From Anaerolineae bacterium (lineage in GTDB: Bacteria; Chloroflexota; Anaerolineae; DUEN01), in assembly GCA_034432955.1 (NCBI GenBank), contig DAOUBB010000045.1, positions 24,302-88,301 of the forward strand: a stretch of DNA of 64,000 nt. Direction: 5' to 3'. Both the position numbers and the translations under genes were made by a program. The notes beneath the pieces were generated by a model that had not been told where the DNA came from, searched no databases, and worked only from the letters and a program-made list of their open reading frames with translations. This document shows, piece by piece, positions 20,131-44,119 of the stretch. The first letter of the stretch is position 1. Each line of letters begins with the position of its first letter.

Positions 20131-20233
20131 TTCATTCCTCCATAATCAGAGTGCAACGTCGAAGCTGATCGCCTTCCGAGATTATATATTAACTTTTCGT
20201 GGCTGTCTACGGCCGGCAAGCGGGCATTATACT

Positions 20234-22233: not shown

Positions 22234-22310
<77 letters not shown>

Positions 22311-22311
22311 T

Positions 22312-22386
22312 GCGGGAGTAGCTCAGATGGTAGAGCCTCGGCCTTCCAAGCCGTTGGTCGCGGGTTCGAGTCCCGTCTCCCGCTCC
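22312..22386 (+). tRNA. tRNA-Gly (anticodon TCC)
   Basis: GCGGGAG...CTCCCGC acceptor. Anticodon loop CTTCCAA. GGTTCGAGTCC T-arm. Confidence 0.85.
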
Positions 22387-22392
22387 TGAAAC

Positions 22393-22465
22393 GGGCCCCT
22401 AGCTCAGCGGTTAGAGCGACCGGCTCATAACCGGTTGGCCCTCGGTTCGAATCCGAGGGGGCCCA
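22393..22465 (+). tRNA. tRNA-Met (anticodon CAT; elongator type, could alternatively be tRNA-Ile2/lysidine)
   Basis: GGGCCCC...GGGGCCC acceptor with G1-C72 pair. Anticodon loop CTCATAA. GGTTCGAATCC T-arm. Confidence 0.8.
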
Positions 22466-22483
22466 CTCTTCTCCGAAGCTCCA

Positions 22484-22516
22484 GTCGTGTCAGGCTGGAG
22501 TTTGTTGTTCCTCAGG
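22484..22516 (+). terminator. Intrinsic terminator after the tRNA cluster
   Basis: CTCCAG-tcgtgtcagg-CTGGAG hairpin followed by TTTGTTGTTCC. Confidence 0.55.
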
Positions 22517-41073: not shown

Positions 41074-41838
41074 ATGGCCGTCGTGTGGGTTTTTCTGGCC
41101 TTCGTGGCGGGCTGGGCGCTCTTGATGGGAGCGTACATCTGGCGCGAGGCGCGGCGTTGGGGCGTGCCGCACCCGGACATCTGGCGTCTGGTTCTGCGCG
41201 GCGTGATGGACCCTTTGCGTTTCTGGTATTTCGAGCGTCCCATCCATTGGCCAGCGGAGACGCGGGAGAAGTGGCTGAAGGCGATGGCACAGCGTCTGGG
41301 CCTTGACGATGTACGAGCTGCTCATTGCCCGTTGTGCGGCAGCGAGATCCCCAACGCCTGGGGCGTGGACCGTCGCGGCCGGCTGACCGTTGGCCCCAGC
41401 CCGGTGCATTGCCCTCGATGCGACTTCCGGCTCGATGCCTGCCGTCACTGCCAGTACTTCCAGCCGGCGGGCGCCTCATCAGGAGGGGCATGGAGCGGGA
41501 TGGGGATGTCGTGGACCCATGGGCGCTGCACCTTTTACAAGTCCGTTCAGCCCGTAGAGGAGATCACCACAGCGGACATGGCGAGGCGGATGCGTGAACG
41601 AGGGTATACGCATCTGCGCGCGCCGACACCCATCGCCGATTCGTACATCCCGCTCGACATGTGTCATGCCTTTGCGTTGGAGCCCAGGTTTCTGCCCCAC
41701 AGCGGCATGCGCAAGCCTGGGCACCGTCAGCGGTGGGCGTTGCGCGTGCTGGCCGAGGCGCAGCCGTCCCAACCCGCACCGACGTCAGCCGAGGGAGAAG
41801 AGCCATCGCTCAGCGACGAAGAGCAGTGGTTGCTCTAG
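41074..41838 (+). CDS. Hypothetical membrane-anchored Cys-rich (zinc-ribbon-like) protein
   Basis: N-terminal TM helix VVWVFLAFVAGWALLMGAYIW. Paired CxxC motifs CPLCG / CPRCD / CRHCQ. Confidence 0.5.
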   Translation: MAVVWVFLAFVAGWALLMGAYIWREARRWGVPHPDIWRLVLRGVMDPLRFWYFERPIHWPAETREKWLKAMAQRLGLDDVRAAHCPLCGSEIPNAWGVDRRGRLTVGPSPVHCPRCDFRLDACRHCQYFQPAGASSGGAWSGMGMSWTHGRCTFYKSVQPVEEITTADMARRMRERGYTHLRAPTPIADSYIPLDMCHAFALEPRFLPHSGMRKPGHRQRWALRVLAEAQPSQPAPTSAEGEEPSLSDEEQWLL

Positions 41839-41861
41839 CTTTTCCCGCGAGAGGTGGGGAG

Positions 41862-42281
41862 ATGAAACACGCCTTGTTCGAGGGGCTGGTCGTCAACGAA
41901 GCCGGCCAGCCGGCTGAGGTGGTCTATCTGGGTGAAGAGCCGTTCTATGTGATCCTGGACGGCGACTTTCGCCGTCACGTGCCGGCGCAGTCCGTAGATT
42001 ACCAGGTCATGCGCTGGCTGCGCGATCAGATCATCGCTCATCAGGACATCGTGACCCAGCAGGCGATGGCGATGTTGGGCCGCGACGACCTGTTCACCAA
42101 AGCCATGCTCGACTCCTCGATCCGCAACCTGGATCGCCACGTGGAGCAACTGATCCAGGTCGGCCTCCCCGAGGCAGCGCGCGCCTGGTTGGGGCTGATG
42201 GGCTTCCTCGTCGTCGTAGACGTACACGGCGAGGTGGTGTCCATCAACCTGCCCGGCGGGCCTGCCCCTGACGATGAGTGA
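41862..42281 (+). CDS. Hypothetical protein (139 aa)
   Basis: GAGAGGTGGGGAG RBS before the ATG at 41862 (MKHALFEGLVVNEAG...). No assignable family. Confidence 0.5.
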   Translation: MKHALFEGLVVNEAGQPAEVVYLGEEPFYVILDGDFRRHVPAQSVDYQVMRWLRDQIIAHQDIVTQQAMAMLGRDDLFTKAMLDSSIRNLDRHVEQLIQVGLPEAARAWLGLMGFLVVVDVHGEVVSINLPGGPAPDDE

Positions 42282-42295
42282 CCCTCTTTAGAGCA

Positions 42296-42330
42296 TTGAC
42301 AACCGACGTTCAAGGCAGTATACTTAAGCT
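42296..42330 (+). promoter_or_regulatory. Near-consensus sigma70-type promoter (TTGACA-N17-TATACT) driving a structured, low-GC leader or small RNA
   Basis: TTGACAaccgacgttcaaggcagTATACT. About 190 nt downstream is a terminator-like hairpin (GCTGACGGC...GCGTCAGC then GTTTGTGCTTCTTATT), followed by further stem-loops before the 42704 start. Confidence 0.45.
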
Positions 42331-42703
42331 GCGAACTTGTGCCGATCGCTTCCCCACCGTATTCATCAAACCCAAGAGGGCGGGGGCCGAGAATGCCGAC
42401 ATAATCGGGAGACAAGCTCGCATCTGAGGTTGCTTTACAAGTTCAGGCGCCTGAATGAGGGGGCGGACATGGCAAACGCTGACGGCTTATGGGGATATTC
42501 CTGAGCGTCAGCGTTTGTGCTTCTTATTCATGAGAAATGGCAGTTCCGTAGCCCGTGATGGATCTCCGCGCTAACTGGAGGCGTGTCTGCCAGGGAACGA
42601 CCGCGGTGATCGCGGTCCCATGGCTTTCAGACACGCCCTGATATCTCGGCGCCTGCGATCACGGACGACGGCAGGCCATCGAAAGACACAAGGAGGTGTG
42701 ACG

Positions 42704-43135
42704 ATGGTTAGCGAAGCTGAGGTTCTATCCGTGCCATGGATCACTGCCGAATCTCAACTCGTGCCGTTCTCTGAGGCGAACCTAACCGATGCCCTGGCTC
42801 AGTATCGTCTGTCTTCCGAGGCGATCGCATTCATCCAGCGCCACATGCTGATGGAGGAAAAGCGAGCGCTCTTACGCTTTCTGTCCAGCCCGACCTCAGA
42901 TAAGAGCTTGCGGACCTTCTGCCAGCGGTGTGGGCGCAGCGAAGATCTGTTGTTGCCGGTTCTGAACGATCTCCTGGCCGAGCGGATTGTGACGCGCTGT
43001 TCGAGCCGCGACGGCGAAACGGTGTACGCTCTGACCGAGCATCCCGCGATCCGTCCTGTGATCGATGAGGTGTTAGCCGCTTACCACGGAAGTCCCGAAC
43101 TGCGATGCCTGCTGGCGAGGTATAACGCGGGCTAG
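42704..43135 (+). CDS. Hypothetical protein (143 aa)
   Basis: AAGGAGG sits 8 nt before the ATG at 42704 (MVSEAEVLS...). Preceded by a roughly 370-nt structured leader. Confidence 0.5.
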   Translation: MVSEAEVLSVPWITAESQLVPFSEANLTDALAQYRLSSEAIAFIQRHMLMEEKRALLRFLSSPTSDKSLRTFCQRCGRSEDLLLPVLNDLLAERIVTRCSSRDGETVYALTEHPAIRPVIDEVLAAYHGSPELRCLLARYNAG

Positions 43136-43201
43136 CTCGCCCCCTCGCCAGGCCGCTGGTTGTGCTATAATGCCCCCGATTCTCACAGGGGCAGGCTCAC
43201 A

Positions 43202-44119
43202 GTGACCGAGGTGTTGATTGACGGTGACAATCTGGCCGGCTGGCTGGCACAAGAGGGGTACATCGCCCATCGCCGGGACGATGAAGGACTGCTTCGTCTT
43301 CTGCGACGCTGGCAGCGGCAGGCGTTGGCGCGCCATCCAGATCACTGGATCACCCTCGTGCTCGATCCCGGCCCCGATCGCGATTACTCCAGCCACCAGG
43401 ATCAGCTCTGGGTCACCGTGGTCGAAGACGGCGGCAGCGCTGACGGTCGCCTGCTGGAGATGTTGGAAGAGGACCTCGTTATGGGGCGGCCACTGTATGA
43501 TGCCCTGGTGGTCACCTCGGACCGTGATCTGAGCGAACAGCTCAAGGCCCTTGGGGTTCGCGTCATGAGCGTTCCCCGATTCGCCCGCCATCTGTTGCGT
43601 GGCCTGCCTCCCCCTGCCGACAAGCCCATCCCCGGCGCGGAAGGATTCACCGACATCGAGCAGCAGTTCCTGGCCCTGGCCGCTCGTCCTCGCCCGCGAC
43701 GCCGTCCCCGCCCCCTGGACCCCGCGACGCTCGCCAGTGCTCTGGAGGGGCTCGCCGCCCAGGCGGTTGAGGAACGGATCGCTGCCGCGCGCCGGCTGGG
43801 CGAGCTGCCAGATCGCCGCGCGGTGCTGGCACTGCTCGAGGCGCTCGGGGATCCCAGCCCTCGCCTGCGGGCGGAAGCAGCTCGCAGCCTGGGCCGCCTG
43901 GGCTACCGCAGCCTGGCCCGGGCTTCCCTTCTCCAGCGATTAGAAGACCCCGACCCCGATGTGCGGGAAGCGGCCGCCACTGCCCTGGGCCGGTTGCAGG
44001 ACTCCTGGGCTATCCCGGCGTTACGAGCCCTGGCCGAGACGGAGCACACCGCGCAGGTGCGCCGCGCTGCGTGGGAGGCCTTACGCCATATCGCCGAGGC
44101 TCAGGGACCCATCCAGTAG
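43202..44119 (+). CDS. NYN-domain (PIN-like RNase) protein with C-terminal HEAT/PBS-lyase repeats
   Basis: Probable GTG start at 43202 after GGGGCAGG. The ORF-track ATG at 43160 overlaps the TGCTATAAT -10 box. VLIDGDNLAGW...ALVVTSDRDL NYN signature. Repeated ALGDPSP..A..LG / LEDPDPDVREAAATALGRL HEAT-like units. Confidence 0.6.
   Translation: MTEVLIDGDNLAGWLAQEGYIAHRRDDEGLLRLLRRWQRQALARHPDHWITLVLDPGPDRDYSSHQDQLWVTVVEDGGSADGRLLEMLEEDLVMGRPLYDALVVTSDRDLSEQLKALGVRVMSVPRFARHLLRGLPPPADKPIPGAEGFTDIEQQFLALAARPRPRRRPRPLDPATLASALEGLAAQAVEERIAAARRLGELPDRRAVLALLEALGDPSPRLRAEAARSLGRLGYRSLARASLLQRLEDPDPDVREAAATALGRLQDSWAIPALRALAETEHTAQVRRAAWEALRHIAEAQGPIQ

Follow-up and report, generated by a model that had tools for sequence, protein, structure and literature searches.

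What kind of control does a long untranslated leader exert in front of a small regulator gene of an Anaerolineae bacterium? The leader lies in a stretch of 64,000 nt from contig DAOUBB010000045.1 (assembly GCA_034432955.1), hereafter the window, where it extends over ~375 nt (42331-42703), is noncoding and precedes the gene at 42704-43135, which encodes a protein of 143 amino acids (aa) with a predicted winged-helix (MarR/ArsR-like) fold. All elements of the leader and the gene itself are read on the + strand. A first-pass annotation, made from the sequence alone, had left the choice between a riboswitch, an attenuator and a small RNA. Of these, the attenuator is best supported, because a terminator-type hairpin with a U-rich tail is the deepest conserved element and always stands between the promoter and the same gene. 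We read the leader tentatively, at not quite an even chance, as a cis-acting transcription attenuator of the mRNA of the MarR-like regulator, in which a ribosome on a short upstream reading frame would block the terminator and to which a translational layer would be added.

A conserved promoter and a structured leader precede the regulator gene

The leader is preceded by a sigma70-type promoter (42296-42324), with TTGACA (42296-42301) as -35 and TATACT (42319-42324) as -10 hexamer separated by a 17-nt spacer, from which transcription would start near 42331. The promoter seen by the first-pass annotation is thus present and scores 11/12, but it is not the sole best of the window, as it shares its score with those at 20209(-) and 20320(+). 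These two, TAGACA/TATAAT and TGGACA/TATAAT, respectively, are divergent and lie ~110 bp apart.

We compared four lineages with a long leader, i.e. the window and the loci L001-4, L005-6 and L009-10; all comparisons taken together cover at most eight closely related lineages. The orthologous proteins of the three other lineages show 79-85% identity, and the promoter and the entire leader are kept at their loci, including both hexamers and the 17-nt spacing (TTGACG/TATACT in L005, TTGACA/TATATT in L009 and TGGACA/TATACT in L001). The upstream neighbors of the orthologues differ, being a divergent Crp-like gene, a sigma-70 gene or a hypothetical gene. As promoter and leader are nevertheless kept, the leader travels with the gene, and the conservation of both at orthologous loci shows that these elements go beyond chance.

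Identity over the whole leader amounts to 0.75-0.81, similar to that of the coding sequence, but is patchy. It rises to 0.86 over 42447-42590, 0.88 over 42519-42590 and 0.89 over 42628-42703. For comparison, identity is 0.61 at third codon positions, 0.31 in the 15 nt that follow the presumed start of transcription and 0.475 in the tip of a hairpin described below. With conserved blocks at 0.85-0.90 against 0.61 at third codon positions, we consider these blocks to be under strong purifying selection.

The base composition changes along with this element. The guanine plus cytosine content is 0.545-0.59 over 42200-42900, while the preceding 2 kb have 0.61-0.69 and the sequence from ~43000 on has 0.63-0.78; this agrees with the AT-richer transcript described before. 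The leader is also highly structured, as had been proposed: its minimum free energy (MFE) is -157.8 kcal/mol (z = -3.4), and none of 100 shuffles was as stable. A consensus model of the four long leaders obtained from RNAalifold contains 102 pairs, of which 96.3% are paired in the alignment, compared to 33-46% in controls with the partners shifted by 1-3 columns. Changes on both sides are seen in four pairs, a number that 24 of 500 shuffles also reach. With 0.118 versus 0.099, the covariation score is reached by 13 of 500 shuffles; since most pairs never vary, the covariation of the four leaders agrees only weakly with the structure. The best local support is found for a hairpin of the 5' domain (42424-42446) and for the big hairpin at 42578-42637.

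Six-frame translations of the four lineages revealed no conserved reading frame on either strand, with stops falling at differing places and 1-nt indels breaking the longest frames. A coding role was considered for the sole long antisense frame and dismissed, as this frame is broken by a 1-nt deletion in L005. The + strand folds better than the - strand by 13.5 kcal/mol, and the terminator-type hairpin is rich in G-U pairs on the + strand, which become C-A mismatches on the - strand. Judging from the lack of a conserved frame, the better fold of the + strand and these G-U pairs, we read the leader as a noncoding RNA transcribed from the + strand. Two short frames behind the terminator-type hairpin, MRNGSSVARD... 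and MAVP, lack a Shine-Dalgarno sequence, are not kept in the orthologues and were rejected. The same applies to an in-frame ATG at 42620, which has a Shine-Dalgarno-like sequence upstream (-12.5 kcal/mol) and would extend the gene by 28 codons: it falls into a nonconserved hairpin tip, is absent from the orthologues and is probably not used as gene start.

To place the leader among known RNAs, Rfam 15 was scanned at gathering thresholds over the whole window and permissively, at E up to 10, over 42150-42850. No Rfam family was found for the leader. In the whole window only three tRNAs reach threshold, and the best permissive match has E = 0.7 and 11.6 bits against a gathering score of 88. The first-pass annotation had been unable to name a riboswitch class and had proposed such a scan, which names none either. 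Comparison by eye with tmRNA, RNase P RNA, T-box, PyrR-site and 6S RNA led to their rejection, as their motifs differ from those of the leader and Rfam gives no match. The annotation had further held that an unconserved region lacking an Rfam match would speak against its proposal. Here, the match is indeed lacking, but the region is strongly conserved and carries pairing-compatible substitutions.

A terminator-type hairpin is the deepest conserved element of the leader

The hairpin extends from 42472 to 42518 and consists of a 13-bp lower stem (GCAAACGCUGACG/CGUCAGCGUUUGU) and an upper stem (CUUA-GGG/UCC-UGAG). With -28.8 kcal/mol and z = -4.8 it bears out the terminator hairpin of the first-pass annotation, although that had placed it at 42490-42535. 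A built-in terminator scan, whose loop limit is 8 nt, had missed it. In six lineages, the folding energies range from -26.8 to -31.6 kcal/mol (z = -3.4 to -6.2), and the hairpin is stable and G+C-rich as an intrinsic terminator should be. It is followed by the U-rich tail GCUUCUUAUUC (42519-42529), in which 7 of 11 residues are U and the U-run is interrupted. The corresponding tails are GCUUUUUGC in L009, AUUUUUGG in L124 and GCAUUUUUCC in L011 and L127, with five consecutive U within 1-3 nt of the stem. A similarly broken tail is found elsewhere in the window: a tandem trio of tRNA genes (22234-22465) is followed by a hairpin CUCCAGUC...GGCUGGAG (~22478-22510) with the interrupted U-tail AGUUUGUUGUU / UUUGUUGUU. 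As this tail is interrupted like that of the leader, it suggests that terminators of this genome tolerate broken U-runs.

Hairpin and U-tail are conserved in seven lineages, down to a protein identity of ~52-55%. In the most distant of these (L124, L011-13 and L127; 52-55%), the leaders differ over most of their length, with short motifs of the 5' domain recurring, and what is shared is a module of a purine tract, (G/A)ACGCUGA ... UC(A/G)GCGU(U/C)GU and a U-rich tail. An alignment of eight hairpin sequences comprises 17 alignable pairs, and 96.3% of its cells are paired versus 30-43% in slid controls. One pair changes from A-U to G-C in three sequences, and seven pairs change on one side only, always in a wobble-compatible manner. 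The upper stems have wholly different sequences between the clades and still pair. The upper stem is thus free, whereas ACGCUGA/UCAGCGU of the lower stem is invariant in all clades. A loose scan of the window for a hairpin followed by U residues gave 25 matches, many of them within genes; this motif is hence not rare, and the argument rests on its conservation.

The position of the hairpin is most telling in L011 and L127, where only ~55 nt separate the U-tail from the AUG of the gene. Inspection by eye showed no promoter-like sequence in this gap in the two loci, so expression of the gene should depend on read-through. An apparent compensatory change between purine tract and U-tail in L009 was discarded, as it demands a 3-nt register shift and does not represent column-level covariation.

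An upstream reading frame starts at the foot of the hairpin

Beyond what the first-pass annotation had described, we found an upstream reading frame preceded by a Shine-Dalgarno sequence, and three segments complementary to the start region of the gene. The Shine-Dalgarno-like purine tract GAGGGGG is located at 42457-42463 and reads GAGGUGG, GAGGUGAU or AAGGAGG in orthologues; L011 and L127 retain GGAGGUGA at this position. Its predicted duplex with the 3' tail of 16S rRNA amounts to -10.7 to -13.0 kcal/mol in five lineages, compared to a mean leader background of -3.5 to -6.1 kcal/mol and ~-15 kcal/mol for the main gene.

The putative frame MANADGLWGYS* (42469-42504) begins with an AUG that abuts the 5' arm of the hairpin, which itself starts at 42472. 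This AUG stands 6-8 nt past the purine tract and is invariant in the window, L001, L005, L009 and L124. Among the AUGs of the leader it alone has a strong Shine-Dalgarno duplex in all five lineages possessing it, and the spacer between tract and AUG is constant in length while varying in sequence. From these features, the start site looks genuine. The frames encode 11 residues in the window (MANADGLWGYS) and L001 (MTNADGLWIRS), 7 in L005 (MTNADGL), 30 in L009 and 20 in L124 (MANADCSYHQEGDQRSYFWR). They end within the 3' arm (window and L001), within the upper stem (L005) or past the U-tail (L009 and L124). As in an attenuator, a frame that has a Shine-Dalgarno sequence and a start codon of its own thus overlaps the putative terminator in five lineages.

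A variable 5' domain may control access to the upstream frame

The 5' part of the leader contains a pyrimidine-rich segment, UCGCUUCCCCACCG (42346-42359; Py1), that is kept in the four lineages and is complementary both to the purine tract (42457-42463) and to the start region of the gene (42702-42714). RNAalifold pairs Py1 with the purine tract when the 5' domain is folded, but with the start region when the full leader is folded. In L005, three substitutions preserve or even lengthen the pairing of Py1 and purine tract (AUCACUUC/GAGGUGAU).

Between these two segments lies a variable domain (42360-42456) with the motifs AUCAA-ACCCAA-GGCG and GAUGCC-ACAUAA and a mean pairwise identity of 0.61-0.72. 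It includes the hairpin CUGAGGUUG/CAAGUUCAG (42424-42432 / 42438-42446) with two compensatory pairs, one changing from C-G to U-A and the other from U-A to G-U. The motif GAUGCCGACA recurs in the L127 leader and is partly retained as GAGAAU in L124. A perfect 14-bp palindrome, TTCAGGCGCCTGAA, is found at 42442-42455; L009 has an imperfect version of it and L124 has none. It is explained by the 3' arm of the RNA hairpin together with the next helix, and could serve as a DNA site for protein binding too.

Long leaders seem to be a trait of the whole family, even without the hairpin (L125), because promoters are placed ~250 nt before the gene in L127 (TTGTATAAT with an extended -10, ~2540-2552) and in L125 (TGACAG-N17-TATAAT, 2720-2752).

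A conserved 3' domain is predicted to bury the start codon

The 170 nt between the U-tail and the gene (42535-42703) are nearly invariant in the clade of the window. This domain opens with the near-invariant block AAUGGCAGUUCCGUAGCCCGUGAUGGAUCUCCGCGCUAACUGG (42535-42577), which holds CCGUGAU (42553-42559) and CGCUAAC (42569-42575). The former is complementary to AUCACGG (42658-42664) and the latter to GUUAGCG (42707-42713), i.e. to codons 2-4 of the gene; all these bases are invariant, and both pairings are predicted. The block is followed by a long hairpin (42578-42637) with an almost invariant base of 10-12 bp (GAGGCGUGUCUG/CAGACACGCC), in which we recognize the long-range pairing GAGGCGTGTCTG...CAGACACGCC of the first-pass annotation at 42578-42589 / 42628-42637. 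The GACCGCG stem that had been listed beside it exists at 42599-42617 (GACCGCG-GUGAU-CGCGGUC), but is only the nonconserved tip of this hairpin; the tip is 0.475 identical and varies in length, and forms a hairpin in each lineage. A further hairpin, GCCUGC/GCAGGC (42651-42676), closes a 14-nt loop (GAUCACGGACGACG), and 11 of its 12 pairs never vary. A pseudoknot between AUCACGG in this loop and 42553-42559 is possible.

The domain ends in a module around the translation start (42676-42713). Here, CCAUCG (42676-42681) pairs with CGAUGG (42702-42707), which includes the AUG at 42704, in both the MFE and the RNAalifold prediction, and the main Shine-Dalgarno sequence AAGGAGGUG (42690-42698) is found in the loop of an ACAC/GUGU stem. 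In L124 and L008, a pairing of the CAUCG/UGAUG type is retained with wobble changes, and L005 and L009 show one uncompensated disruption each. The start region GCGAUGGUUAGCGA finds complementary sequence in three segments upstream of it, i.e. CCAUCG (42676-42681), CGCUAAC (42569-42575) and the 5' segment UCGCU...CCACCG, and every predicted fold buries the start codon.

Translation-gated attenuation as a working model

What the comparison of sequences supports directly is the conservation of promoter, leader, hairpin and upstream frame, together with the pairing-compatible substitutions; from these, we infer that the hairpin terminates transcription, that the upstream frame is translated, which way regulation runs and that it answers a physiological signal. 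In the attenuation model, transcription would start from the promoter at 42296-42324, and the hairpin with its U-rich tail would form ~140 nt into the transcript. By default, intrinsic termination would release an RNA of ~195 nt. A ribosome at the AUG at 42469 would keep the 5' arm single-stranded while the polymerase is still on the hairpin, and thereby allow read-through into the gene. The repression of terminators that lie a few bp past a stop codon (PMC4824070) agrees with such a block. In L009 and L124 the ribosome would translate across the whole hairpin. The 5' domain probably sets the access of the ribosome, as Py1 (42346-42359) can pair with the Shine-Dalgarno-like tract. In transcripts that read through, the clade-specific 170-nt domain would form a second layer by base-pairing with the start codon and codons 2-4. 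Alternatively, a factor other than the ribosome may block the terminator.

Several observations weigh against the attenuation model. The hairpin begins 3 nt past the AUG and, once folded, would be an obstacle to initiation in its own right. In Escherichia coli, a coding region can harbor efficient terminators within its first 100 bp (PMC4824070), and so a very early block by the ribosome would need polymerase pausing. L011 and L127 have the hairpin and the Shine-Dalgarno-like tract yet no AUG, offering just an in-frame GUG inside the purine tract with an unusable spacing, and L007 and L125 lack the hairpin module altogether. Furthermore, stop and length of the upstream frame vary (7-30 codons) and indels in the loop shift the frame, while the conserved codons M-(A/T)-N-A-D share their bases with the stem, so that the conservation of the peptide is not independent evidence. 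The U-tail of the window is interrupted. Folding of transcripts truncated before the 3' arm yielded no consistent antiterminator partner for the 5' arm in six lineages, although a mutually exclusive antiterminator is not needed for a direct block of the pyrBI type. The covariation is modest, with 11 and 13 of 500 shuffles reaching the scores, few and close lineages and mostly invariant pairs. Finally, attenuation alone does not account for the extreme conservation of the 170-nt 3' domain.

In the most serious competitor, the 5' domain (42346-42465), the 3' domain (42535-42680) or both bind a metabolite, an ion or an RNA-binding protein, perhaps the product of the gene itself or its HEAT-repeat partner (see below). 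Binding would then determine whether the terminator forms or the polymerase reads through, and whether the start codon is buried or exposed; the Shine-Dalgarno-like tract would be a mere strand of the closing helix and the upstream frame would stay untranslated. The order of promoter, ~120-nt domain closed by Py1 and the purine tract, and terminator fits this explanation, as do the L005 substitutions that maintain the closing helix and the presence of purine tract and hairpin without an AUG in L011 and L127. An invariant ACGCUGA/UCAGCGU lower stem under a free upper stem suggests that the sequence itself is recognized or pairs in an alternative way; at 0.88-0.90 identity, the 3' domain is conserved beyond the need of a simple spacer, and a loop pseudoknot CCGUGAU/AUCACGG may form. 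We nevertheless regard a ligand- or protein-binding leader as rather unlikely, given that no Rfam family appears even at E up to 10, that the putative aptamer region is the least conserved (0.61-0.72), which is the opposite of typical riboswitches, and that the truncated-transcript folds revealed no antiterminator. Its distribution is very narrow, compared to the usually widespread metabolite riboswitches, and the conserved AUG with its Shine-Dalgarno spacing in five lineages is left unaccounted for.

Three further explanations carry less weight. A trans-acting small RNA of ~195 nt (42331 to ~42528), with the gene merely adjacent or expressed by leak-through, would be delimited by a strong conserved promoter and a terminator of its own 190-200 nt apart, and attenuation would in any case leave a product that accumulates and could have gained a function in trans. 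However, the element occurs with this gene only: each locus holds a single copy, and none was found elsewhere in the window or in the DNA fetched for comparison. In addition, conservation continues unbroken to the start codon, no promoter-like sequence was seen between U-tail and gene, and the leader is least conserved where the body of such an RNA would lie, which together make a small RNA improbable. We see little prospect as well for a constitutively structured 5' untranslated region, whose hairpins would guard against 5' decay or fix a low level of translation in a thermophile. The stable folds, the start codon buried in all of them and the lack of an identified alternative structure would suit it, but 375 nt at 85-90% identity with an invariant lower stem exceed the constraint on a stability element, an unregulated U-tailed hairpin would waste transcripts, and the conserved Shine-Dalgarno tract and AUG would go unaccounted for. 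Least of all do we expect the conserved inverted repeats to be DNA operators through which the MarR-like product regulates its own gene, i.e. TTCAGGCGCCTGAA at 42442-42455, AGTATACT at the -10 box and the hairpin arms. MarR/ArsR-type regulators commonly bind palindromes close to their own promoters, the product has a MarR/ArsR-like winged-helix fold, and the 14-bp palindrome at 42442-42455 is perfect. The hairpin substitutions, though, are G-U-compatible, which is of relevance to the + strand RNA only; the hairpin arms stand 21 nt apart with variable spacing; and the palindrome is not perfect in L009, is missing from L124 and can be explained by the 3' arm of an RNA hairpin that shows a compensatory C-G to U-A change.

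Attenuation and ligand binding may also be combined. The leader would then represent a clade-restricted regulatory RNA with two sensors: a translation-gated terminator, with ribosome loading at the hairpin foot controlled by a signal-sensing 5' domain, and a new ligand- or protein-binding RNA (42535-42680) that controls translation of the MarR-like/HEAT-repeat pair in Anaerolineae. We consider this version speculative and unlikely. If the 3' or the 5' domain does bind a ligand, it would constitute a new riboswitch class; otherwise, the leader would be one more lineage-specific attenuator. The gene context of a MarR-like regulator and a HEAT-repeat protein points to no ligand.

Comparison with known leaders

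As far as its sequence tells, the leader is a new example of a familiar type of control. To our knowledge, gene regulation in Anaerolineae (Chloroflexota), an abundant and mostly uncultured group, is almost wholly uncharted. If true, the combination of a promoter, an upstream frame at the hairpin foot and a structure burying the start codon would provide a concrete and testable example of attenuation in this phylum. It would also offer a handle on an uncharacterized family, a MarR-like protein paired with a HEAT-repeat protein.

The closest parallel is the bmrB leader of bmrCD in Bacillus subtilis, where blocking translation of bmrB raised the terminator efficiency (PMC4191407). Both leaders feature a promoter, a leader frame preceded by a Shine-Dalgarno sequence and an intrinsic terminator (putative here) inside or overlapping this frame. 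In L009 and L124 the upstream frame spans the whole hairpin as in bmrB, and L001-L006 carry two ABC exporter genes downstream of the regulator gene, reminiscent of bmrCD. By contrast, BmrB has 53 codons and a predicted antiterminator and anti-antiterminator, whereas the frames described here have 7-30 codons and start at the hairpin foot, and no antiterminator was found. Moreover, the gene that would be controlled here is a MarR-like regulator, and there is no sequence similarity.

For pyrBI of E. coli, the input is UTP-sensitive pausing of the polymerase in a U-rich stretch before the terminator, and the pyrL frame has 44 codons. Unlike in pyrBI, no U-rich tract precedes the hairpin described here, and the gene class is unrelated. 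The likeness concerns the arrangement: in the account of PMC5021804, which cites Roland et al. 1988 on this point, the leader frame overlaps the terminator and a closely following ribosome prevents the hairpin. To the extent of that account, pyrL/pyrBI shares with our leader the overlap of frame and terminator and the proposed block of the hairpin by the ribosome.

The order of a ~120-nt domain closed by a helix, an intrinsic terminator and a structure at the ribosome site also resembles terminator-type riboswitches and 5' riboregulators as predicted by PASIFIC-type methods (PMC5314783). In contrast to these, our leader has no Rfam match, its 'aptamer' is the least conserved part, no mutually exclusive antiterminator is detectable, and with 375 nt it is much longer and continues into a second conserved domain past the terminator. 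With the trp, his and phe attenuators it has in common a short leader peptide frame before an intrinsic terminator; however, MANADGLWGYS lacks a run of regulatory codons, alternative 1:2 / 2:3 / 3:4 pairing is missing, and the gene is not biosynthetic. The Salmonella mgtA leader senses Mg2+, is >250 nt long and includes the upstream frame mgtL, whose occupancy steers the formation of stem-loops and the continuation of transcription. It thus likewise unites a long structured leader with a short upstream frame, translated in mgtA and putative here. Attenuation of mgtA is Rho-dependent and mgtL is proline-rich, whereas the terminator described here is of the intrinsic type and is not known to be linked to an ion or ligand.

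Gene context and distribution of the leader

The 143-aa protein matches no Pfam or NCBIfam model, including those of MarR type. Its AlphaFold model has a predicted local distance difference test (pLDDT) value of 83.6, and the best Foldseek matches are MarR-family regulators at E ~1.5e-3 with template modelling (TM) scores of 0.4-0.5. The model thus weakly resembles MarR/ArsR-type winged-helix regulators at the level of the fold. Among 5.8 billion proteins, the family forms just 11 clusters, and every one of these stems from Anaerolineae-type metagenome-assembled genomes and metagenomes. A gene for a HEAT-repeat protein (43160-44119) follows the regulator gene, and this pair of a winged-helix gene (143-156 aa) and a HEAT-repeat gene (~300 aa) recurs in L007, L011-13, L124 and L125. 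L001-L006 lack the HEAT-repeat gene; the two ABC exporter genes found there (ABC_membrane + ABC_tran) take a place downstream of the regulator gene.

Each orthologous locus has a single copy of the leader, which was found nowhere but immediately before genes of this family. Searches by nhmmer, pattern and covariance model revealed no further copies in the window, at other loci or in the other DNA fetched. An 18-mer search of genome contigs gave at least 104 matches, and leader-wide nhmmer matches among them are confined to the orthologous loci; the other loci match just the stretch around the seed 18-mer, at E of at least 0.005, and were rejected. Four 17-mer matches in viral contigs were put down to chance, as was one match of a two-block pattern in a metagenome contig (L019) that nhmmer does not recognize. 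Among the matches listed, the leader thus appears only in a narrow group of Anaerolineae; the pattern scans used exact seeds only, and the real distribution may exceed these matches. AGTATACTT at the start of the L008 contig had been considered as the promoter of a short leader, but the L008 sequence, which aligns with the L124 leader in its 3' part, is merely cut short.

On the upstream side, the genes at 41074-42281 (254 aa and 139 aa) belong to no Pfam or NCBIfam family and show no linkage to the leader in other lineages. On the downstream side, the 67 nt that separate the regulator gene from the HEAT-repeat gene hold a perfect extended -10 element, TGCTATAAT (43163-43171). A promoter of its own may thus serve the HEAT-repeat gene, in addition to read-through from the leader promoter.

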